Shown: one piece after another, positions 48,267-61,683 of the stretch
Position numbering within the stretch: the stretch's first letter is position 1
Layout of the letters: the number at the start of each line of letters is the position of its first letter
Origin: Thermodesulfobacteriota bacterium
GTDB taxonomy: Bacteria > Desulfobacterota_D > UBA1144 > Nemesobacterales > UBA2774
Direction: 5' to 3'
Length of the DNA stretch: 64,000 nt
Assembly: GCA_965216785.1 (NCBI GenBank)
Contig: OZ244197.1
Span: 2,624,001 to 2,688,000, forward strand
Position numbers and translations under genes: made by a program
The notes under the pieces: model-generated
What the model was told of the DNA's origin: nothing
Database searches by the model: none
What the model saw: only the letters and a program-made list of their open reading frames with translations

Positions 48267-48341
48267 GCCGACGTAGCTCAGCGGTAGAGCAGCTCACTCG
48301 TAATGAGCAGGTCATCGGTTCAATTCCGATCGTCGGCTCCA
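48267..48341 (+). tRNA. tRNA-Thr(CGT), encoded CCA; integration target
   Basis: GCCGACGTAGCTCAGCGGTAGAGCA-GCTCA-CTCGTAA-TGAGC-AGGTCATCGGTTCAATTCCGATCGTCGGCTCCA. Confidence 0.97.
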
Positions 48342-48460
48342 ATGTTTACTGATAGTTACATCACTATTAGGTACTGGATAATTACCAGTGTCTTCTCCCT
48401 GTCTAACCACTACACTTTAATTTATGTCTACTGTGAATCTTACGCAGGAGGCAAAGACTA

Positions 48461-49501
48461 ATGGCTTCATTAGTATTCAAACATAATAGTTACTATGCTG
48501 TATTCAGTGTTAATAAGAGGAAGAAGTGGATAAGAATCGGTAAGGTTAGTAAACCAGAAGCGAAGAAAATTCTTAAACAACTGGAAGCTGAACATCTAAA
48601 AGGGAAATTGGGATTAGTAGAAAATAAGCAAATCCTACTGGATGATTTTCTAAATGAATATCTAGCCCACTCTAAAACGAATAAAGCCCCAAATACTTAT
48701 AGGCTGGAAAAAGGAATAGCTAAAACTATTAGATCACATTTCGGTAATATTCTTTTAACAACAATTGATAACCGCGGGCTAGATACTTATAAAGCAAGCA
48801 GAGTAAATAAAGGGTTAAAACCTTCAAGCATTAATAGAGAAATAATGGCTATTAAATATATGCTAAGGAAAGCTTATGATTGGAAGTATATTGAGCATAT
48901 ACCTAATATTAAGTTATTAAAGATTCCCAATAGACCTGTTCAATTTTTATCAGTGGATGAAATTGACAGTCTAATTAACCATTCGAGCATATGGTTAAAG
49001 CCAATAATAATGGTATTGCGTAATACTGGTATGAGGATAGGCGAGCTACTCAACTTACGCTTTAATGATATAGATTTAGCTAGAGGATATATAACTGTTA
49101 GAAGCCCGAAAACTAATAATTATAGAATAGTTCCTATTAACAATGAGCTTAGCACCCTACTCCATTGGCTTACTAATAATTATATAGCCCCGAAGGGTTT
49201 AACTGTTAAGCCTCGATCCAACTTACATAAGGAATATTTGTTTTGTCATTCAGATGGAACTAGAATTAAGAGCATTAAGACTAGTTTTAATAAAGCATGT
49301 AAAAGAGCAGGTATTAAAGCCACTGTACATATGCTTAGACACAGCTTCGCTTCATATTTAGTAATGAATGGGGTGGATTTAGTATCGGTTAAAGAGTTAT
49401 TAGGCCATACAAGTATTAATACAACAATGATTTATTCACATATATCTAATGAGCATAAGAATAATTCAGTTTCTAGGTTGCCATGGTTGAACAACTATTA
49501 A
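48461..49501 (+). CDS. tyrosine integrase with N-terminal arm-binding-like domain
   Basis: Catalytic set apparently intact: TGMRIGE, PKT, HMLRHSFAS, LLGH, TMIYSH; AGGAGG RBS. Confidence 0.95.
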   Translation: MASLVFKHNSYYAVFSVNKRKKWIRIGKVSKPEAKKILKQLEAEHLKGKLGLVENKQILLDDFLNEYLAHSKTNKAPNTYRLEKGIAKTIRSHFGNILLTTIDNRGLDTYKASRVNKGLKPSSINREIMAIKYMLRKAYDWKYIEHIPNIKLLKIPNRPVQFLSVDEIDSLINHSSIWLKPIIMVLRNTGMRIGELLNLRFNDIDLARGYITVRSPKTNNYRIVPINNELSTLLHWLTNNYIAPKGLTVKPRSNLHKEYLFCHSDGTRIKSIKTSFNKACKRAGIKATVHMLRHSFASYLVMNGVDLVSVKELLGHTSINTTMIYSHISNEHKNNSVSRLPWLNNY

Positions 49502-49514
49502 TTCATTTAGATTG

Positions 49515-50222
49515 TTAGTGGCATAGATCCTTTATTGCATCATAGGCTAGGAATAAGCCTAATTCCCCAGCTTTAGATAGGTCTAAGCACCCGGAGTCTA
49601 TTTGACCAATAGCTAATTTAGACATGCCTCTTCCCATATATCCTTTAGCATCCTTAGAATTTAACTGTATAACTTTGTTGAAGTCTACAATACTACCTCT
49701 ATAGTCTCTTAATTCAGATTTGGCAAGCCCCCTTATCAAATAAGTGTAAGAATCATTAGGCTCCAATTCAATACATTTACCAAAATCCTTCATAGCTTCA
49801 TCATAAAAACCCAATTTAATTTTTACACTACCCCTATTTGTATATGCATGACAATTATTAGGGTTAATTTCAAGAGCTTTATCATAATCTAGCATAGCCC
49901 CACTATAGTCACCTAATCTAGACATTGCACCACCTCTAGAGGCGTATGCACTAGAATCGTTTGGGTTTAACTCTATTACTTTACTGTAGTCTGCTATTGC
50001 ACCACGATAGTCACCCAGCTGATATTTAGAACTACCCCTACCGCTGTATGCATCAGTATCGTTAGGTTTAAGCTGTATAACATTACTGTAATCTATTATT
50101 GCACCTTTGAAGTCTTTATTACCAAATTTAATAAAGGCATTGAATCTGTAGTCTTCAACGTTTTGAGCTATGGCGAAATTAGTGAACAAGGTTAAAATAC
50201 ATATAATTACAGCTACTTTCAT
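49515..50222 (-). CDS. secreted TPR-repeat protein
   Basis: Signal peptide; 34-aa repeats AY..RG.....LGDY.GA..DY.K.IEL.P; cap GCLDLSKAGELG. Confidence 0.9.
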   Translation of the reverse strand: MKVAVIICILTLFTNFAIAQNVEDYRFNAFIKFGNKDFKGAIIDYSNVIQLKPNDTDAYSGRGSSKYQLGDYRGAIADYSKVIELNPNDSSAYASRGGAMSRLGDYSGAMLDYDKALEINPNNCHAYTNRGSVKIKLGFYDEAMKDFGKCIELEPNDSYTYLIRGLAKSELRDYRGSIVDFNKVIQLNSKDAKGYMGRGMSKLAIGQIDSGCLDLSKAGELGLFLAYDAIKDLCH

Positions 50223-50289
50223 AATTGCTTTATAATAACACATAGATCATGGTAATATAAAGTTGTCATTGACTAAAAGGATAGTATTT

Positions 50290-50607
50290 ATGAAATCATC
50301 TAAATCTATTGCTTTACTAGCCATGTTTGGCTTTTTATTAATATGCATAGGTTGTGCATCACACGAAACAGAAAATATGTTGAACGCTGGATTAGGAAAT
50401 ATGACATATGAGAATTCTTTGCAAATGTTTGGAGCTCCGTATATGTGTGCCGAGGAAGGTAGAACCAAAACATGTACTTGGATATATGGAAGTAGCAAAT
50501 TTGGTTGTGTCGGTAAAGTTTGTGGCACCGTCGACCCACCGACAGCTTATCTAACTTTTGTAAATGGCGTATTAAGTAATTGGCGATTGACCGGTAAATG
50601 GAAGTAA
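50290..50607 (+). CDS. small Cys-rich lipoprotein
   Basis: CIGC lipobox; FGAP...TWIY...LTFVNGVLSNW resembles a BamE/SmpA-like fold. Confidence 0.75.
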   Translation: MKSSKSIALLAMFGFLLICIGCASHETENMLNAGLGNMTYENSLQMFGAPYMCAEEGRTKTCTWIYGSSKFGCVGKVCGTVDPPTAYLTFVNGVLSNWRLTGKWK

Positions 50608-50678
50608 AATTATCATACAACCTGTTGATAATCAGATTAATAATATTCGTATTGCTACCTAATAATTTCAGCTAATGG

Positions 50679-51500
50679 TTATTGACATAATATGTTTATA
50701 TTATTATATGCTTGAAAATACCCCATTTCACCTGCTTTAGATAGGTCTAAACATCCAGATTCTTTTTGACCTAGTAATATTTTAGCAATTCCCCTGTAAT
50801 TATATGCTTGAGCATCATTGGGAGTAAGTTCAATGACTTTGTTATAATCTACTATCGCACCACGATAATCGGCTTGTCGATATTTAAAACTACCCCTGTT
50901 GTAATATGCTTGAGCATCATTGGGAGTAAGTTCAATGACTTTGTTATAGTCAATCAATGCACCTCTATGATCACCCAATACAATCTTAGTATTAGCCCTG
51001 TTACCATATATTTCAGCGATATTCGGGTCTAGCTCTATAGCCTTGTTATAGTCAATCAATGCACCTCTATAATCACCCAGATTGAACTTCGCATTTCCTC
51101 TGAAATAGTATGCCCTTGTGAAAACAGAGTCTAATAGAATAGCCTTGTTAAAGTCTTGTATCGCTCCTCTATAATCATCCAGGCGGATTTTAGCTTCACC
51201 CCTCTGAAGATACCCATCAGGAATACCAGGGTTTAACTCAATAGCCTTATTGTAATCTTTTATAGCACCTCTATAGTCACCCAGCATACTCTTAGCTAAA
51301 CCCCTGCCCCCGTATGCTGAATACGCAACAGGCCCATTAATCTTTGTTAACTCTATAGCTTTATTAAATTGTTCTATGGCACCTGTATAATCACCTTTTT
51401 CAACATTTTCTATTCCAGCATTAAAAAAATCCTTTGCTGTTTGCGCCAGAATTAAGTTTGGAATCATAACAAGTAAAAAAATAAGACCTATTATTTTCAT
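50679..51500 (-). CDS. secreted TPR-repeat protein, paralogue of 49515-50222
   Basis: Signal peptide; about seven TPRs; cap GCLDLSKAGEMG. Confidence 0.9.
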   Translation of the reverse strand: MKIIGLIFLLVMIPNLILAQTAKDFFNAGIENVEKGDYTGAIEQFNKAIELTKINGPVAYSAYGGRGLAKSMLGDYRGAIKDYNKAIELNPGIPDGYLQRGEAKIRLDDYRGAIQDFNKAILLDSVFTRAYYFRGNAKFNLGDYRGALIDYNKAIELDPNIAEIYGNRANTKIVLGDHRGALIDYNKVIELTPNDAQAYYNRGSFKYRQADYRGAIVDYNKVIELTPNDAQAYNYRGIAKILLGQKESGCLDLSKAGEMGYFQAYNNINILCQ

Positions 51501-51581
51501 AGTTACCTAACTTTCCCTAATAATCACAATAAAATAGACCGTATTATTTATCAAGTAGCTTTTTAATCTAAAGCTAATAGC

Positions 51582-52592
51582 CTAGTTTGTCATAAATAAA
51601 AACTTATCTTCATCATAACCAGAAGAATAATATTCAAATTGCTCTCTAATCATTTCAGCCAAGTGATTAAATATCGATTCATCCTGTACAAGTTTTACAA
51701 ATTCTGAGTAGCTAGGCCTTTTATAAAATGTTTTCCTCTTAACAGCTTCCTCTAGTATGTTGTCAAAATGAATACATTTCATTAGCCACTCCATAGTATC
51801 TTTAAGAGCCAGCCATAAGGGAACATTTCTCTCTAGTTCAATAAATAGACTTTTTAGTACCTTCTCCTTTTTACTCAGTTTTATCACATCAGCTCCTACT
51901 CCGAGACTTATATATTTATATAACGTCTTAAAATCACCTCTCACATAAGCTTCAAGCATAAATAGAAGTAGTTCATTAAAGCACGGTTCTATTACATTAG
52001 CCACTCTTTCTAAATGGATTTTAATATCATTACCGCCTTTATTTAACCGTTTCTCTCCCAATATATACTTAGAATTTGTAAAGTTTATTACTGAGAAAAA
52101 TTCAAGGTTATCTGTATATATCACATATAAGAATACGCCCTTACCTGTAGTCCCATTGGCTTCTTTGGCCCTATTTAAATCTAATAAATACTCACTATAG
52201 TCATACTCAACTGGGTTTATATTCAACTCTTTATCTTTCCACACCCCACATCTATCGATATACGAATAATTCTTAGTGCTATTTTCAATATTAAAGTGAT
52301 CGCCAGTCAAATATTTCTTAATGGATTCCCTATGAGCCTTACTGAATTTGTATGGGGTACTATCATCTAAATTATCGATACGTTTTAGCTCCTGTATACC
52401 GTGATGAACACAATATTTCCCCAGTATTAATCTATCTATATCATAGTCGTACCAACCCTTCGGATACCTGATATTAGGTTGTCTATTTATTGTTTTCACT
52501 AAGACATCATAATTGTCATTGTAAATACAACGGGTATAAAGCTGAAAGTTGTTAAACATCTCCGGATTTCTTAGATTAGCTGTTTCTGTCAT
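51582..52592 (-). CDS. hypothetical protein (336 aa)
   Basis: Long ORF in AT-rich DNA, GGGAG RBS, no motif recognised. Confidence 0.75.
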   Translation of the reverse strand: MTETANLRNPEMFNNFQLYTRCIYNDNYDVLVKTINRQPNIRYPKGWYDYDIDRLILGKYCVHHGIQELKRIDNLDDSTPYKFSKAHRESIKKYLTGDHFNIENSTKNYSYIDRCGVWKDKELNINPVEYDYSEYLLDLNRAKEANGTTGKGVFLYVIYTDNLEFFSVINFTNSKYILGEKRLNKGGNDIKIHLERVANVIEPCFNELLLFMLEAYVRGDFKTLYKYISLGVGADVIKLSKKEKVLKSLFIELERNVPLWLALKDTMEWLMKCIHFDNILEEAVKRKTFYKRPSYSEFVKLVQDESIFNHLAEMIREQFEYYSSGYDEDKFLFMTN

Positions 52593-52723
52593 TTTTATCT
52601 CCCTTCTTAAAACTTATTTGCCTTATATATTTTCATGTAGTGTTGATAGAATTAGAATTCGTATAATGCTGGAGCTATACCTATCTATCAACTGTCTATT
52701 TTATTTCTAGAAGCACGGTAGCA

Positions 52724-52990
52724 CTACATTAGATCACGCTCAGAATGGATTTTAATCATTCGTTCACGGGCTAATTCTCTCTGTTTAGTTGATACCTTCT
52801 TTGGAGGGCTAATTTTAACCCAGTTCTTAGGTACTATGTAAACCTCATAATCGGCCTGCTTATGACTCGGCTCCACGCCTAATTTCTTCATTCTGGTTTT
52901 AACCCGTCTTTGTCTGGTAGTTATGCTTGCGGTATCTTCTGCATCGTTAAAATTAATAACTGTCTCGGTTTCTAGTTTAGTTAGACTCAT
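52724..52990 (-). CDS. small basic hypothetical protein of mobile-element type
   Basis: GAGGA RBS; ETVINFN.AE.TA...VPK.WVKI.PP.K.S..QRE pattern recalled from phage/ICE hypotheticals. Confidence 0.75.
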   Translation of the reverse strand: MSLTKLETETVINFNDAEDTASITTRQRRVKTRMKKLGVEPSHKQADYEVYIVPKNWVKISPPKKVSTKQRELARERMIKIHSERDLM

Positions 52991-53014
52991 TATCCTCTAC
53001 ATTCCTCCTATATC

Positions 53015-53311
53015 TTATTCTTTATTTAGCGGTGGTACTAAGTAATAATCTGGATCTCTATGACCCTCGCGTCGGTTATCATTGGCAAACATCATATAAT
53101 TGACATTCCCGTCTTCTGTTGTCTCCGCATAATCAATGACCTTTTGTAAATCTTCCTTTGTCATACTGACGGAGAAGTATGGCATATCGTATCCATCTCT
53201 AGCGTATAACCAGGCCGCACCCCAGGTTATAAACTCCTTCTTATCATCTTTAACATGTTTCACCTCTTCCTTAGCCGATATCCGAAAAAATGACCTTTTT
53301 TTCTTAGACAT
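53015..53311 (-). CDS. small hypothetical protein, DUF736-like
   Basis: GAGGA RBS; GAAW, PYFSV, F.ND....H.DPDY motifs. ORF likely real, family call tentative. Confidence 0.6.
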   Translation of the reverse strand: MSKKKRSFFRISAKEEVKHVKDDKKEFITWGAAWLYARDGYDMPYFSVSMTKEDLQKVIDYAETTEDGNVNYMMFANDNRREGHRDPDYYLVPPLNKE

Positions 53312-53481
53312 ATCCTATTCCTCGCTTGTTTATTTTATTCAGTATATGACATATTCAACTACTTTATATCACCTACTGAACAATATTATTCATAATTAGT
53401 AGTCGTAGAATTTAGATGGTATTAATCCAGGATACTTTAAACCAAATTTGATTGATATTATCACCCATCCATCTAATTCAA

Positions 53482-53526
53482 CACAACAAAATGTGTTATA
53501 AATACATAGAACCACAATATGTTGTG
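53482..53526. promoter_or_regulatory. tandem NrdR-box-like operators overlapping a leftward promoter
   Basis: CACAACAAAATGTG (53482) and CACAATATGTTGTG (53513), 31 bp apart; TTGACA on minus strand at 53529-53534. Confidence 0.55.
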
Positions 53527-53759
53527 TTTGTCAAGTATTTTTCACAAATTGTGGTAGATTAGTGTAAATATCTAATGCAATGTCTGAACATATGAAAACA
53601 ATTGAAGATTAAGTGAAAATAATATGCTCAATAAGGGAAAAGGCTATTAAGTCAATATAACCCGCGGCTAGTTATTAACTTTATTAAACACGTCTACCCC
53701 CTATATATAATTAATATATATACACGGTTAATATATGGGTATTCATGATTTAACTGTAA

Positions 53760-54070
53760 GCTTAATGTTTAATAATAACTGCACGTTTATTAAACGTAAG
53801 TATTTAACCTTTACTAATGAAAAGAAAAACATATGTTTAATAAACATACGTACTAACAAGTACCTACATGTATCTAATAGTTAATACATACGAACTAATA
53901 GTTAATGCGTATGTATTAACTGGTAATACATATGATAAACTAGTAGAATAAGTGGTAAACCAGTAGAACTTATGGTAATCAATTGGTAGTATTCTTTTCA
54001 TTTAGTAAAAACTGGTATATATGTTAATACATGTGTTATGTAGTAACCAATGGTTATGTATTAACTAGTT
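53760..54070. repeat. nested inverted-repeat cluster in non-coding AT-rich DNA
   Basis: AGTTAATACATACG/CGTATGTATTAACT (53879-53921); GTTAATACAT/ATGTATTAAC (54023-54065); TTTACTAATGAAAAGAA/TTCTTTTCATTTAGTAAA (53810-54009). Confidence 0.75.
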
Positions 54071-54678
54071 ATTAGGCCCGGATTAATCATTACTGGATTA
54101 AATAAAGCTTATTGACCTTTAAACAAATATAATTTACTAGACCCTGATTACCATTTAACTATTTAGCATCCATGTACCCTTATCAACTCATGATTAATCG
54201 TTGAAAAATCCGCATAATAGACATTCTGTGCATAATATTGGGAATTAATTATCATATATTTATAGATGGTTACAATACACACTTAAAGTAATAATCTCTT
54301 GCTTACTATGTGGAATTTAGTAGATTATGATAATTGTATATTAATACCGGATAACTATTCCCCCAATACTTGTATATGTTATATATAAAGTATATAGTAT
54401 ACTAATCCACGGGCTGGTGGTAGAGTAGCTGGGATGGATAATTTACCCTTTATGGCGGGCTAATCTATTATGAGCATTTGATAAATGTGGATTAGTATTT
54501 AATAGAAAACAATGTTCTTAGACATTAGATGACAATCTACTAACATAAACCAATAATGACCTATTCCCTTATGATTTATATTCAATCATCTCTTTATCCA
54601 GCCTTAGACTAGCTGTACAATTGTTTATGAATATTGTACAATGCTTGTCAATTATTGATTCTAAAGGAGAATGGATAA

Positions 54679-55950
54679 ATGAATAGACTTAAATTATTCT
54701 TACCTATAGTAGCTTTAATATTTATTTTTGCGCTGCATCAACAACCTGCAAACGCCGAAGATATAACTCCTGTAATCAGGCAATTAACAAACTTCGATAG
54801 TGACGTTCTCCCAGGCAGAAGACCTGTAAGCCAGGACGGGTCGTTGATAGCGGCAAGTAGCGGTGAAAATATTAACGGCGGTAACCCGGATGAGAACGGT
54901 GAGATATATTTATTTCACGTACCTGTTTTATCTATCCGTAATATTGATCAAATAACCAATACCTCTAACTGTTTCAACTTCGATCCCACTATAAGCGGCG
55001 ACGGAAACATAATAGCTTTTATTTCAGACTGTGATATTACGGGACAAAACCAGAATAACCTTCAGCAGGGCTTCTTCTTTAATAGGCTAAGCGGTCAGTT
55101 CACCCAGTTCACGAATAATACGAATGGAAATGTTTCAATAATTGTGATAAGCAAAGACGGCTCGACTATCGCAATCAGATCAACCATGAACATAAACGGC
55201 GGTAATCCGGATTTCAGCGATGAGATTTTCACCTTTAACATTAATAGCGGGACGCTAACGCAGATTACTATGTCTAATACTGACAGTACTGATCCGGATA
55301 TAAACGCCGACGGGTCTGTTATAATTATGAGATCGCGGGCCAACTTCACGGGACAGAACCCGACAAACCGAAACCAGGTTTTTAGATACGACGGAAATTT
55401 CCAACAAATCACAAACATTACCACGGGAACTACAACTCTCCCATCGGTAAACGACGACGGGTCAATTATATCGTATGGCTCAAACGGGGACGTTCTTTTA
55501 CCAAACCCTGGATTTATTCATCGGATTTACTTGTACGACAACAATACAGGTACGACCACGCAAATAACCAATAACAATACCGGGAGCTCTAATATCCCAA
55601 CCCTTAGCGGTGACGGCAAGAGGCTGTTATTCAAATCGAACGGTGATGTATTGGGACCCGGTAACGGCTTTGATCAGCTTTTCTTATATGAGATGGGCGT
55701 AATTACTCAGCTCACGAATTTTACCGGCGCTGAAGTTGATAATATATTTCAGCCTAGTATAAGCTGTGACGGAGAGTCTTTTGTTTTCGGTGGGAACGTA
55801 CCAGATAGTAGAATTCAGCTTTTCAAGGGGCTATTCGAGGTTCCGGTGAGGCCTATTCCTACCCTTTCAGAGTGGGGTCTAGTAGCTATGGCTGGAGTAT
55901 TGGGAATCGTAGGTCTACTAGCTATTCGCAGAAGAAAAGCACGGATTTAG
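54679..55950 (+). CDS. IPTL-CTERM sorted surface protein with TolB/PD40-like beta-propeller repeats
   Basis: Signal peptide; repeats QITN....P.IS.DG..I.F.S; tail VRPIPTLSEWGLVAMAGVLGIVGLLAIRRRK. Confidence 0.92.
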   Translation: MNRLKLFLPIVALIFIFALHQQPANAEDITPVIRQLTNFDSDVLPGRRPVSQDGSLIAASSGENINGGNPDENGEIYLFHVPVLSIRNIDQITNTSNCFNFDPTISGDGNIIAFISDCDITGQNQNNLQQGFFFNRLSGQFTQFTNNTNGNVSIIVISKDGSTIAIRSTMNINGGNPDFSDEIFTFNINSGTLTQITMSNTDSTDPDINADGSVIIMRSRANFTGQNPTNRNQVFRYDGNFQQITNITTGTTTLPSVNDDGSIISYGSNGDVLLPNPGFIHRIYLYDNNTGTTTQITNNNTGSSNIPTLSGDGKRLLFKSNGDVLGPGNGFDQLFLYEMGVITQLTNFTGAEVDNIFQPSISCDGESFVFGGNVPDSRIQLFKGLFEVPVRPIPTLSEWGLVAMAGVLGIVGLLAIRRRKARI

Positions 55951-56009
55951 TAATTCATAATTCCCCCTTATCTATCCTCCTCCTGCAGGCAATTAGGGGG
56001 GAAGCTGGT

Positions 56010-56035
56010 ATGAGGGGAGTTTTGGCTCCCCTCAT
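56010..56035 (+). terminator. stem-loop after IPTL gene 1
   Basis: ATGAGGGGAG-TTTTGG-CTCCCCTCAT; U-tract weak. Confidence 0.55.
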
Positions 56036-56091
56036 TAAAATCCATCTGTCGACCTATAGCTGGGCCTAATCAACTGATGAGATATATAGCG

Positions 56092-56323
56092 CTATTCTAC
56101 TATTGAACCCCCAGTAACAACATGATAAATTAGATACTTACGCAGGAGGCATATGCATTAAAAGTGTCTAACCATTATCTAACCATTCAATCGTATTTAG
56201 TTAATGTGAGGTCTTATGCTAGATAATTTATCAAGTGTTAACAGCTCATTAGCTGACCAAATATTAGCTAATATCTCACTCGTAATGAGCAGGTCATCGG
56301 TTCAATTCCGATCGTCGGCTCCA
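56092..56323 (+). repeat. 232-bp right-end repeat copy 1 (arm plus 49-bp att core)
   Basis: Matches 58375-58606 with one visible mismatch (ACAGCTCATT vs ACAGCTCCTT). Confidence 0.95.
56103..56131 (+). promoter_or_regulatory. outward-facing sigma70-type promoter in the right arm (second copy 58386-58414)
   Basis: TTGAAC-17 bp-TAAATT with extended -10 TGn. Confidence 0.6.
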
Positions 56324-56563
56324 GTAAATACTAGGACTTTCTCCGACTCACGGCGAGAACATCTAGGGCTTTCTACCCATTGTCTACCAACTAGAACCTC
56401 TTGCTTTAGATGACAACCTACTATTATTAACTAATAATTGCCCATTCCCTTTTGATTTGTATAGTCAGTTATCCCTTTATCCAGCCTTTGACTAGTGTTT
56501 ACATTGACCTACACATGTAGTAGAATAGCTACAATATTTTTGTTTAAAGGAGGATATTAAACA

Positions 56564-57322
56564 ATGTTTACAACCAACAGACTTTATTTATCAGTGTTAT
56601 TAATAGCTGTGTTAGCAGTAGTTCCAATATGGTCAGCTAGTGCACAGGATCCGGATCAAGTAGACAGTGTTGACCCATTATTTATCGATCATTTAAACCT
56701 AATCAGTGAAATGACAGTTCCAAATGTGCTCATTGAGTTTGACGACATGCCGCAGGGACCCACAACAATCGAAGATATACTGAACACATTCCCCGATTCA
56801 TGTCTTGGGAATATCACTATCACATCCAAACAGCCACCCTTTGTAGGATCGTCTGGTATATATAATTCTAACACAGGCGGTGGTAGAGCGCTTGCCTTAA
56901 ATCCCGATAATTCAGGTGGTTTATATCTTGTAGATCCGGGGGGGCTTTTTCGCCCGAATGATGACATAGTTATCGATTTGATTGTGCCTGTTAGACAGAT
57001 AGGAATTGAATTAGGCGACGTGTCTGGGACAATGAGTGCTGAGTTTTTTAACGGCGCCGTGTCTCTTGGAACTATTGGCTTACCTATAAGCTCAGTTGAC
57101 AGGACCAATACAATAGAAAGTGATATTGCATTCAATCGCGTTGTAATATCTTCACCATTTGCACCTGATCTTATTGATTTTGTAATGCCCTCTGTCAGAG
57201 TACAGTTGTGTAATTTCGTAAGACCTATACCGACGCTTTCCGAATGGGGTCTAATAGCTATGGCAGGAGTATTAGGAATAATCGCTATTTTGGCTATCCG
57301 CAGAAGAAAGGCAGCTGCCTAA
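56564..57322 (+). CDS. IPTL-CTERM sorted surface protein, unknown beta-rich passenger
   Basis: AAGGAGG RBS, signal peptide ending ASA, tail VRPIPTLSEWGLIAMAGVLGIIAILAIRRRK. Confidence 0.92.
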   Translation: MFTTNRLYLSVLLIAVLAVVPIWSASAQDPDQVDSVDPLFIDHLNLISEMTVPNVLIEFDDMPQGPTTIEDILNTFPDSCLGNITITSKQPPFVGSSGIYNSNTGGGRALALNPDNSGGLYLVDPGGLFRPNDDIVIDLIVPVRQIGIELGDVSGTMSAEFFNGAVSLGTIGLPISSVDRTNTIESDIAFNRVVISSPFAPDLIDFVMPSVRVQLCNFVRPIPTLSEWGLIAMAGVLGIIAILAIRRRKAAA

Positions 57323-57356
57323 TCGGCAACCAACTTATACAATACAATTTAACTTT

Positions 57357-57383
57357 AAAAAGGGGAGCTTCGGCTCCCTTTTT
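57357..57383. terminator. intrinsic terminator, probably bidirectional
   Basis: AAAAAG-GGGAGC-TTCG-GCTCCC-TTTTT. Confidence 0.88.
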
Positions 57384-57539
57384 AGTTTGGTTTTAATATC
57401 TATAAATCCAACTTAAATCCTTGTTGACATATGGGGTGCTAGACAATTATTGTAATATATTAATATTGTGTTGGTACACATTGGTTACAACTTAAATTTG
57501 ATTGTGCATGAATAAGTAATACTTACATAAGAAGGAGCT

Positions 57540-58265
57540 ATGATTATGAGCAATCAATCAATGGTTATTGGAAATGAATCTGCAAACTGTAGAAAATCTA
57601 ACTGGTGTAGAATCACTACAATTTTATCCATTTTATTACTAGGTATGTATATCGCATCACAGACTGTATTGGCAGCAAACCCGACGGATCCAGAGTGGGT
57701 ACTGAAAGCCAACTACGTAGATGCTTGCAGTTGCGACGTGGCATGCCCCTGTATCTTCGGTCAGCCATCAACTCACGGTTATTGTAAGGGTGCAACATTG
57801 GTGGAGATCACAGAAGGATATTATGGCAAGGTCGACCTAACTGGTGTGAGTGTTCTGGCTGTGTACAACAGTGGCAAATGGATTAAATTTTTTGTTAGTG
57901 AGAATGCAACCAAAGAACAGACAGATGCAGTAGTTGAATTCCTCCCGGTCGCTGAAGGTTTCTTTAAAGCTCCTATCCGCGAAGTAAAGAACCAGCCAAT
58001 ATCAGTATTACGTACAAGTGACAAAGTGAAAATTTCTACTGAAGAGACTCTAATCGAGTTAGAGCAGATACAGAATGCCAACGGAGACCCAATCAAGGTA
58101 CTAGGATTACCTGCTCATGGATTCCCGGGCTTGCCCTATCTTGACCATACACAATATAAAACAGTAACATTGGTACATGATAGTGAAAAGGAAAAATTCA
58201 ATTTTTCTGAGACCAATGGGTACACAGCAAGGATAGATGCTTCTAGCGATTCGAAAGAGCAATAA
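57540..58265 (+). CDS. DUF1326-like secreted metal-binding protein
   Basis: W.LKANYVDACSCDVACPCIFG..STHGYC, I.EG.YGKVDLTG. Confidence 0.82.
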   Translation: MIMSNQSMVIGNESANCRKSNWCRITTILSILLLGMYIASQTVLAANPTDPEWVLKANYVDACSCDVACPCIFGQPSTHGYCKGATLVEITEGYYGKVDLTGVSVLAVYNSGKWIKFFVSENATKEQTDAVVEFLPVAEGFFKAPIREVKNQPISVLRTSDKVKISTEETLIELEQIQNANGDPIKVLGLPAHGFPGLPYLDHTQYKTVTLVHDSEKEKFNFSETNGYTARIDASSDSKEQ

Positions 58266-58374
58266 CTAAAGATCTAAATTACGTGTTTCTACCAAACTAT
58301 TAGATCCAGTCGACTCAAACATCCATTTCTCAACCCTTATACAGGCCTAACCAATTTAGTAAGAGTTACTACCC

Positions 58375-58606
58375 CTATTCTACTATTGAACCCCCAGTAA
58401 CAACATGATAAATTAGATACTTACGCAGGAGGCATATGCATTAAAAGTGTCTAACCATTATCTAACCATTCAATCGTATTTAGTTAATGTGAGGTCTTAT
58501 GCTAGATAATTTATCAAGTGTTAACAGCTCCTTAGCTGACCAAATATTAGCTAATATCTCACTCGTAATGAGCAGGTCATCGGTTCAATTCCGATCGTCG
58601 GCTCCA
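58375..58606 (+). repeat. 232-bp right-end repeat copy 2 (arm plus 49-bp att core)
   Basis: Direct repeat of 56092-56323. Confidence 0.95.
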
Positions 58607-58713
58607 TTGTTTATAGTAAGTTACACCACATTTAGATACTGGCTCACGGATATTATCTACCCAACTCACTGTTATTCATGCCTACTGAGAATCTTACACG
58701 GGAGGCAAAACTA

Positions 58714-58899
58714 ATGGCTACACTAGTCCACAAGTATAAGAGTTACTATGGGGATTTAATCTATGGCCTATCATTCGGTACCTGTTGTGGAATCGTAAGA
58801 CCAATACCGACACTTTCTGAATGAGGTCTAATAGCTATGGCAGGAGTTTTAGGGATAATTGGGTTACTGGCACTCCGAAGAAGAAATCAAACAGCATAA
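58714..58899 (+). pseudogene. chimeric relic: integrase N-terminus fused in frame to an IPTL-CTERM tail with a Trp-to-stop change
   Basis: Reads MATLVHKYKSYYGDLIYGLSFGTCCGIVRPIPTLSE*GLIAMAGVLGIIGLLALRRRNQTA*; compare integrase start MASLVFKHNSYY. Confidence 0.88.
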
Positions 58900-58968
58900 A
58901 CTGAAAGAATAAATCTGATCACACAAACGGGAACAGTACACTCAAACCGATAAAGAAAGATAAGAGCA

Positions 58969-60645
58969 TTATCTTTCTTTGCCCCTCTGCCGCAAATATT
59001 TATCGATATCCTCCACATTCTTTTGGTTAAATTTCTTAAAAGTCGTAAAGCCGTCGCTCGTCATTAAAATATCGGTCCTGTTCCATACGGCTAAATTGAC
59101 ATCCCTGTCCGATGTTGCGGATAAATTGTCTTCGAGCTGTTTCAAAATCTCAGGGGATAGAGTATCTGTACCGATGGTCTCGACTAAAACATACCAAGAT
59201 TCGCCCTTTGGCCTGTGATGAATGTTTATCGGGATAATATTGCTGTATTGTTCAAACTCTCCTAATAACGCTTCATCGATCTCACCCCTCAATCGTTCTT
59301 CCTCCTCTGTAAAGCCTGCGTAAATGTAGCCGGGAAGAAGGTCTCCGCTCGCATCGGAATAGGTAATTTCTTCATTTTTTATAATGAGGCTCATCTTTGG
59401 GTTTTGCATTTTACTTCTCAGGTCCTCCTGAAGCTCCCCTATCTCGCTCTCCGTAAGATTCCTATAGCTCTGTATTGTAGCGACAACGGTCGGCCCGCGG
59501 AGCAGTTCAACATAGTCTACATCTACGAGCGACATACCGTGCCAGTGGGTAAACCTTTCTATAAGCTCTTTCTCGATTACATTCACGGCTTTTTTCCAGT
59601 CGGTAAGCGATTCCTTAAGAAAGAATCCATCGAGGTTCTGTCTGATGACGTTCTCGCCCGACCCAATAGCGCCAACGTCTTGAGCAAGTACATTCCTGAA
59701 TATAAGCTCTGTAGGTTTCTTTGTCTGCTCTTCGATATTCTTCTGCACCGCTTCGACCTGATAGGGCGTTACCGTCCTCGGACTCTTTATATTTGCCAAT
59801 ACGTACAATTTCCCATTTTCCTCGTCGTAAATAAAACCGTCGAGCGATGTTGTATGAAGCTCTATCATTGCTGATTCCAAAATGTTTTTAATGGTGTTGC
59901 TCAAGTACCTCTCCTGGACAATCTCGATAAGTGAGTAGGTAAGGAACACGCATACGGCTAGAAATCCGATAATTGCCAGACCAAAACGCCTGAGCAGGTC
60001 TTTGGTCGAGACCGAGATCCACCACGGGGAAAGGCCTGCAAGCATGAACGTCGTACCGGCAACTAGCAGTATCGACAGGAAATTTGCAAAAAACAGCATA
60101 AAGGAGCCGAATGCCCCGTAGTAATAGCCGAGCGAAACGCATATACCGGTATTTGATAACGGAGGCACAATGGCTGTAGCTATCGCAACGCCGGGGAGAG
60201 CCGGACTCAATTTTTCATCTATCATAGCATACGCCCCTGCAAAACCGGCCAGTACCGCTACCATAAGATCGAGCAGGGTGGGCTTGGTTCTGGCGAGCAT
60301 TTCAGGGGTTGCTGCAAGCTCCAGAGGCAAAAATCCGATCAGACCCGCAGAAACAATCGCCAGTATGGCACCCAGAATTACTGAGCGCAGGGCTGTGGCC
60401 AGAAGACGGGGTTTGCCTATGACTATGCCAAGGGTGATGCCTATTATGGGGGTCATAAGAGGCGAAACCAGCATAGCTCCGATAATGACCGCAGTGCTGT
60501 TGGATATAAGACCGAAGGCAGCGATGAGTGAAGCAGTGGCCAGAAGAGCGTAGAATCTAAAGCCCGGCTCTGACCCGGTACTGATCTCCTCAATTATTTG
60601 TTCTTTACGCTGCTCAGATACCCTGGTAAAAAATTTAGTAATCAT
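58969..60645 (-). CDS. DUF389/TIGR00341-like membrane protein with long C-terminal extension
   Basis: NSTAVIIGAMLVSPLMTPI, ARTKPTLLDL, LPGVAIATAIVPPL. Confidence 0.88.
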   Translation of the reverse strand: MITKFFTRVSEQRKEQIIEEISTGSEPGFRFYALLATASLIAAFGLISNSTAVIIGAMLVSPLMTPIIGITLGIVIGKPRLLATALRSVILGAILAIVSAGLIGFLPLELAATPEMLARTKPTLLDLMVAVLAGFAGAYAMIDEKLSPALPGVAIATAIVPPLSNTGICVSLGYYYGAFGSFMLFFANFLSILLVAGTTFMLAGLSPWWISVSTKDLLRRFGLAIIGFLAVCVFLTYSLIEIVQERYLSNTIKNILESAMIELHTTSLDGFIYDEENGKLYVLANIKSPRTVTPYQVEAVQKNIEEQTKKPTELIFRNVLAQDVGAIGSGENVIRQNLDGFFLKESLTDWKKAVNVIEKELIERFTHWHGMSLVDVDYVELLRGPTVVATIQSYRNLTESEIGELQEDLRSKMQNPKMSLIIKNEEITYSDASGDLLPGYIYAGFTEEEERLRGEIDEALLGEFEQYSNIIPINIHHRPKGESWYVLVETIGTDTLSPEILKQLEDNLSATSDRDVNLAVWNRTDILMTSDGFTTFKKFNQKNVEDIDKYLRQRGKER

Positions 60646-60769
60646 ACCGTTTATCGCACATGCTATATGATATAATAATTATGAGATTCAACATAATGCA
60701 CACTTTTAATAATTACATAGGTGTCATCTAATTCAATACTAAGAAGGTTAAAATCGCTCAAAAATTCAA

Positions 60770-61459
60770 ATGGGGACGGAAAATGATCAGGGACTTAATC
60801 TTGCTATAATACTCGAAGGTTTCGAAGGCTTCATCCTTATTATAGTTTGTACATTATTCTGGCCGATTCTACGCTATATTCTCCGAAACATAGGAACAAC
60901 CCTAGAAGAAAGAGAAAGGGAGTGGCCCGGAGATACACTACTTGAACGAGCTGACCGGACTTCGACACGCGCAATTAATATAGACACTAACCCCCATAAT
61001 ATTTGGCCCTGGATTGTACAGATAGGCCGAGATAAAGCGGGGTTCTATTCTTATGAATCTGTTGAGAACCTAGCCGGACTCGATGTAAAGAACCGGGAAA
61101 CAATAGTACCCGAATTCCAGACTTTGAGAGAGGGGGAATTTATATCCCTTCATCCAAATGGTCAGGGTGTCTATGCGGATAAAATAAAACCTAATGAGCA
61201 CCTTATATGCAGGGACTGGAAAGATGATTCAAAGATCGAGGAGCTAAGACCAGTATCCAAAAAAACATGGTCATTTTACATAGTTCAAGTCAATACAGAT
61301 AGATCACGGCTCATTATAAGATCATGCGAAGAGACATTGCGCCCAGATTTCCTTCACGTTCTCGTAACACTTTTATTTATGGATCCTATTGATTTTGTGA
61401 TGGAGTATAAAATGCTTCGTACAATCAAACGGCTGACCGAGGGTTGTGAACTAACATGA
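60770..61459 (+). CDS. conserved hypothetical protein, SRPBCC-like
   Basis: GTT.EE....PGD, TRAI.I...P..IWPWIVQIG.DKAGFYSY, FVME.KML..IKR..E. Confidence 0.8.
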   Translation: MGTENDQGLNLAIILEGFEGFILIIVCTLFWPILRYILRNIGTTLEEREREWPGDTLLERADRTSTRAINIDTNPHNIWPWIVQIGRDKAGFYSYESVENLAGLDVKNRETIVPEFQTLREGEFISLHPNGQGVYADKIKPNEHLICRDWKDDSKIEELRPVSKKTWSFYIVQVNTDRSRLIIRSCEETLRPDFLHVLVTLLFMDPIDFVMEYKMLRTIKRLTEGCELT

Positions 61460-61683
61460 AATTTCTCCAAAAAACTGAACATAAGAATAAGGGCTTTAGA
61501 GCACCTAACATAAACAATATCAGATAGTTAAATTAGAGTGCATCACGCTTACGATCGGTTCACAAAACCACTCAATTTTATCCCTTCTTAGCTAGTATCC
61601 AGAACACTTACAGACGCCATTAACTGAGACAGATAAAAGGGAAACAGTACTATACCTTCTATATCCTGTTTTGACCTATAAAC

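Follow-up and report, generated by a model that had tools for sequence, protein, structure and literature searches.

Positions 58607-58899 of the window, the whole stretch of 64,000 nucleotides that was analysed, directly follow the third of three copies of a tRNA 3' end, and they raise the question of how the start of an integrase and the end of an IPTL gene came to share one reading frame. The original prediction saw there an older sister of the neighbouring elements that had lost its whole interior. By a modest balance of probability the segment is a deletion scar: the left end of a sister element and 12 of its integrase codons fused in one frame with the 3' end of an IPTL gene, likely the element's own cargo, in a relic that is likely inert.

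The array starts at a tRNA-Thr(CGT) gene whose last 49 bp are repeated exactly at 56275-56323 and 58558-58606, giving three att copies in a row. Its features up to the third copy, all on the + strand, are the following.

48267-48341, +: target tRNA-Thr(CGT), with its last 49 bp (48293-48341) as att core
48342-48460, +: left end and leader of element 1, with a TCTAACCA-type repeat and a ribosome-binding site
48461-49501, +: intact tyrosine integrase of element 1, 346 aa, above the cut-off of Pfam PF00589
54679-55950, +: IPTL1, a PD40 beta-propeller protein with an IPTL-CTERM tail, final gene of element 1
56087-56323, +: right end of element 1 with paired TCTAACC repeats, plus att copy 2 (56275-56323)
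56324-56405, +: left end of element 2, paired repeats at 56372-56389, no integrase, abutting IPTL upstream DNA
56564-57322, +: IPTL2, 252 aa, whose body matches no Pfam family
57540-58265, +: DUF1326 gene, second cargo gene of element 2
58370-58557, +: right end of element 2, sharing 99% identity with its element 1 counterpart
58558-58606, +: att copy 3, an exact match to the tRNA 3' 49 bp (48293-48341)

Element 1 (48342-56323) thus comprises an intact integrase, TPR genes and IPTL1, followed by a 237-bp right end with att. Paired repeats commonly serve as arm sites of tyrosine integrases, and the TCTAACCA-type repeats at the left end probably have this role. The integrase ribosome-binding stretch CTTACGCAGGAGGCA (48439-48453) recurs in the right ends (58422-58437), just 5' of the paired arm repeats. 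About 1.1 kb of element 1 (53400-54520) is AT-rich and non-coding, with short direct and inverted repeats near 53785-53944, and is possibly an origin. The array has no recognisable conjugation or relaxase gene.

Element 2 (56324-58606) is a 2.3-kb integrase-less cassette that keeps both ends and att copies. Its left arm runs straight into IPTL upstream DNA, which reads as another collapse of an element's interior, here with a gene still whole. The right ends of the two elements (56087-56323 and 58370-58606) share 99% identity, in contrast to much more divergent left ends, a pattern that suggests recent homogenisation.

Behind att copy 3 the following features were delimited.

58607-58713, +: left end and leader of the remnant, with GGAGG at 58701-58705
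58714-58749, +: codons 1-12 of a sister integrase, MATLVHKYKSYY
58748-58750, +: deletion junction, an ATG common to sister integrases and the IPTL paralogue
58750-58803, +: last 18 codons 5' of the IPTL motif, as in the gene family of C1:2705206 (C1 denotes contig positions of this genome)
58804-58899, +: IPTL-CTERM tail, with TGA at 58822-58824 replacing a Trp codon
58969-60645, -: DUF389 gene, the second paralogue in the genome, 69 bp past the tail, where terminator and right end are expected

The resemblance to the integrase leader, claimed from two quoted strings that are both present, is solid. Local alignment of 58607-58755 with 48342-48500, att excluded, scores 93, while shuffled sequences average 17.2 with a maximum of 33 and 196 AT-rich control windows inside element 1 reach at most 22. 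Three parts taken separately also score above all 2000 shuffles: the non-coding leader with 59, the att-proximal 44 nt of that leader with 30, and the coding start with 34. The leader and 12 codons have 67-74% identity to four sister left ends. At the site of the sisters' paired TCTA(A/C)C repeat the remnant leader is 11 bp shorter than that of element 1 and retains a single repeat copy (58656-58664). The locus thus starts at a tRNA 3' repeat with an adjacent integrase fragment, and the content of the site varies among relatives, as in decayed tRNA elements.

Positions 58714-58899 translate in one frame as MATLVHKYKSYY-GDLIYGLSFGTCCGI-VRPIPTLSE*GLIAMAGVLGIIGLLALRRRNQTA* (asterisks denote stops), in agreement with the predicted run into the IPTL motif and the TGA at 58822; the frame is not among the ORFs of at least 50 aa. 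The 45 nt that separate the two halves have no match in the integrase, in IPTL1 or in IPTL2. After codon 12 their single genome-wide match is the 3' end of the IPTL gene G000:C1:2705206-2706006 (81% over 53 nt), and the 56 nt before the IPTL motif are 80% identical to this gene versus at most 41% to the other 51 tails. The alignment with this paralogue is gapless from 58748 to 7 nt past the stop. Since similarity to the integrase ends and similarity to the paralogue begins at 58748-58750, at an ATG common to seven sister integrases and to the paralogue, the junction is a single in-frame deletion joint with 3-bp microhomology.

The expectation that the tail would align with the two IPTL tails of the window was borne out in part: the tail is closest to that of IPTL2 (83%), but the preceding 45 nt match neither gene. 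Likewise, an integrase start does precede an IPTL end as in element 1, but the IPTL half is not of the IPTL1 family and its body matches the C1:2705206 gene, so that the layout of the remnant is no copy of element 1. With the stop read as X, the tail reaches 58.0 bits against an HMM built from the tails of this genome and has the IPTL motif, the helix and the basic end. Reading of TGA as Trp was considered and rejected: the codon is TGG in 53 of 55 tails and TGA terminates 323 of 1330 long frames.

Repeats of 49 bp and 237 bp flank the region and the genome has many similar IPTL tails, a setting in which an assembly could join the wrong copies. Such a misassembly, or a chance resemblance, is practically ruled out by the shuffles, none of which in 2000 attains the observed score, and by contigs that span the junction. 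Runs X1 and X4 come from one sample, possibly the source of the genome, and are used as an assembly check and not as independent support; one 23.5-kb contig covers junction and stop (58577-61500) with 0 differences. A contig from another study also spans the junction. It belongs to X5, a related strain, and covers 58558-58857 with 13 differences and no gaps (record 19); a second X5 contig covers 58810-60966 with 14 differences.

The related strain also orders the events. At 58824 the whole X5 depth of 27.7 shows G, hence TGG in place of TGA, an allele seen in four X5 contigs and, weakly, in two short X7 contigs at depth 4.3. The junction is present in X5 but the codon at 58822 is TGG, which places the stop later in time than the deletion, and the tail, described in the prediction as dead, deserves that word in this strain and not in X5. 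At 58688 and 58700 X5 carries the bases of sister elements, which makes these positions private changes in the copy of the present genome. X5 depth is 0 over 48451-54764 and 57471-58372, most of elements 1 and 2, while remnant and flank are present; the remnant is likely the oldest layer of the array. As regards excision or circular forms, the element contigs of X1 have flank depth (80.9-88.3) and there is no att-to-att joint among those listed, which speaks neither for nor against excision because contigs lose rare forms; a joint 56073-58356 derives from a copy in the tRNA-Ser island.

The locus could have arisen in five steps. Element 3 would have integrated at tRNA-Thr(CGT), its tyrosine integrase recombining at the 49-bp core. 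Illegitimate recombination would then have deleted the integrase beyond codon 12 along with the interior and most of the IPTL gene, a joint that had a 1-in-3 chance of falling in frame. A left-arm repeat would also have been lost, as would terminator and right end, and the remnant would likely have become unable to excise as a consequence. Elements 2 and 1 would next have integrated on the tRNA side, displacing the remnant outward, and TGG would finally have changed to TGA in this lineage only.

The predicted loss of the interior of an older sister is thus backed by the left end, by the pinned junction and by the presence of the remnant in a related strain. The membership of the IPTL gene in that element is less secure: a fuzzy search found no right arm pair and no fourth att in 47.6 kb downstream (C1:2682900-2730500). 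The tail might have belonged to an outside neighbour in the accretion zone, the same deletion having crossed the right end and att of element 3, in which case the scar would say nothing of an integrase-IPTL layout. This has some probability, though less than an origin as own cargo. It agrees with a tail that no right end or att follows, with the 57-60 IPTL tails of the genome, with the position of the closest paralogue 22 kb downstream within the same variable zone, and with IPTL genes that lie directly after att at C1:1606810 (C1:1605284-1606648) and after the tRNA in the relative G003. The variable zone starts at the remnant, the outermost part of the array, and gives way to conserved backbone at C1:2730416, a distance from the tRNA of 58 kb versus ~6 kb in G003. 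The hairpin terminator of the family is absent after the remnant tail, a point weakened by a downstream fold of -12.5 kcal/mol, the 12th weakest of 55. The terminator is missing under either model, and the event that removed it could have taken the right end too. Moreover, all three intact Thr-type right ends of this genome, two in the window and one in the tRNA-Ser island, have an IPTL gene on their inner side with shared upstream DNA; together with the closeness of the tail to IPTL2, this makes own cargo the likely source.

The third of these right ends (C1:1606810-1607098, L080:10811-11047) lies with its att among IPTL genes of the tRNA-Ser(TGA) island. It has no matching left end and is similar to element 1 over 462 bp, from IPTL tail through att. 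DNA upstream of IPTL1 matches genome-wide only that upstream of the other two right-end IPTL genes (window 54525-54644 and 56406-56495; G000:C1:1608019-1608079). The bodies of the three proteins are unrelated: PD40, an unknown fold and a C-type lectin. The start of IPTL2 matches only the C1:2705206 paralogue; start and terminator are common to the two genes and the body is not.

The claim that the remnant is independent evidence for a recurring integrase/IPTL pairing was overstated: it comes from the same site and genome, among 57-60 tails, and sisters elsewhere mostly have no IPTL gene. Outside this genome an IPTL gene was found inside the element at one of six informative ends, those without being G021:C42, G005, G027/L086, L085 and L087 (a further G021 end with 300 bp of flank was excluded). 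The tRNA-Pro sister element, 59% identical, has none. Three of 34 scanned loci, some short or redundant, hold an IPTL tail. A right-arm scan of metagenomes gave three loci, none with an IPTL tail; a single-integrase scan of genome contigs gave no match, and viral contigs reached at most 38% identity. These counts do not describe a dedicated integrase-IPTL element family; the pairing is a local habit of the lineage, not a general one.

IPTL tails themselves are a host trait: 32 of 33 genomes of the family have between 5 and 77 of them. In the present genome 11 of 60 lie in tRNA islands (rotation p 0.025), and four of ten tRNA islands hold them (p 0.069), this island being counted in both figures. 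IPTL clusters are not enriched near tRNAs (p 0.21-0.37), and tails adjoin tRNA-Thr(CGT) in three of nine other genomes (rough p 0.025-0.11). The enrichment in tRNA islands is borderline.

In G012:C100 an IPTL tail, right end and att are followed by a 43-codon integrase stub, which is evidence that truncation behind att recurs. The BLAST ends had raised the suspicion of the same breakpoint in G012, which was rejected on the length of that stub. In L039:3712-11746 (G022) tRNA-Thr(CGT) is followed by more att copies without an integrase, and the second segment holds two very short IPTL frames. No undeleted element 3 came up when the DNA of 60 relatives and of 119 genomes of the class was searched, and the leader matches obtained there end at the junction. 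The two genomes of the same genus have a completeness of 80-82%, and the G002 contig stops before the tRNA.

The fusion could also have been kept as a functional membrane peptide of 61 residues. It would be translated from the ribosome-binding site of the integrase, have the IPTL tail as its anchor and perhaps be a substrate for cleavage by exosortase H, and only this strain would have lost it. The frame is continuous, GGAGG is intact, the stop reads TGG in X5 and, weakly, in X7, and an exosortase H gene exceeds its family cut-off at C1:983605. Among the eight of 13 X5 differences that are listed, five being unseen, six fall in 107 leader bases and two in 144 coding bases (Fisher p 0.076), which leans toward constraint on the fusion. 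A function is nevertheless very unlikely. No signal peptide or folded body remains, the N-terminus being an integrase start and the TGA preceding the helix. Among nine candidate proteins of 33-107 aa, eight were matched, all eight by the tail only. The junction was not found in 119 other genomes of the class, and one joint in three would be in frame to begin with. The genome has further broken IPTL tails that have no full body (C1:1063500 and C1:1612477), so that orphan tails are common debris.

As a deletion scar the remnant is one decayed layer in a stack of elements accreted in tandem behind a tRNA gene, and decay of this kind is ordinary. It is a well-resolved case of stacked tRNA-island decay that dates the layers, first the deletion and later the stop. 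In a review that lists Pavlovic et al. 2004 among its references, elements stack at one att with copies of the tRNA end between them, the older ones decaying by deletion into CIMEs (PMC5704250). Element 2 fits the definition given there, both ends being kept and the integrase lost, whereas the remnant, with codons 1-12 of the integrase left and the right end gone, is more decayed and is not a CIME. Tycheposon islands of Prochlorococcus (10.1101/2020.12.28.424599) likewise have partial tRNA copies, newer elements displacing older ones and fragmented integrases, in a different host lineage; the cargo here consists of TPR and IPTL-CTERM proteins.

The better lead than the remnant is the IPTL slot with shared flanks, together with the integrase-less element 2. 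The Thr(CGT) elements of this lineage may carry at their right end a slot for exosortase-anchored surface proteins, with unrelated bodies (beta-propeller, C-type lectin and two unknown folds) swapped by recombination via the shared upstream DNA and the conserved tail, and with remnant and element 2 as worn-down products; as it stands this idea is rather unlikely. If true, it would offer a route for the spread and reshuffling of IPTL-CTERM surface genes, and a mobile cassette for surface variation would become testable. These proteins are abundant and their domain is scarcely named in the literature searched. An IPTL tail and XrtH form a pair of substrate and enzyme. The genome agrees with the IPTL-CTERM/exosortase H system (TIGR04174, TIGR04177) in the tail motif, hydrophobic helix and basic end and in its exosortase H gene; the remnant differs in having neither signal peptide nor body, and a stop at the Trp codon.

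Truncated integrases are also described in pipolins (PMC11551731), and the piPolB motif is given as KH-X8-KTRG in another report (PMC5695915). Like pipolins, the full-length sister elements of G005, G011 and G056 and the one at tRNA-Pro in this genome combine a tyrosine integrase that targets a tRNA with a polymerase of family B (PF03175; PMC5695915, PMC11551731). The array of the window has no PolB and is not a pipolin; the sister PolB matches this genome only at C1:111370-113604. Three full sister PolBs were aligned and differ from those of pipolins in having no KH-X8-KTRG motif; their PolC motif is STDSV, with one Asp. These sisters would be self-synthesising elements at tRNAs, yet lack the motif by which pipolins are recognised. 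Their PolB genes (L036:4659-6881, L037:6803-9049, L047:7098-9413 and G000:C1:111376-113643) code for proteins of 740-770 aa with a C-terminal HTH.
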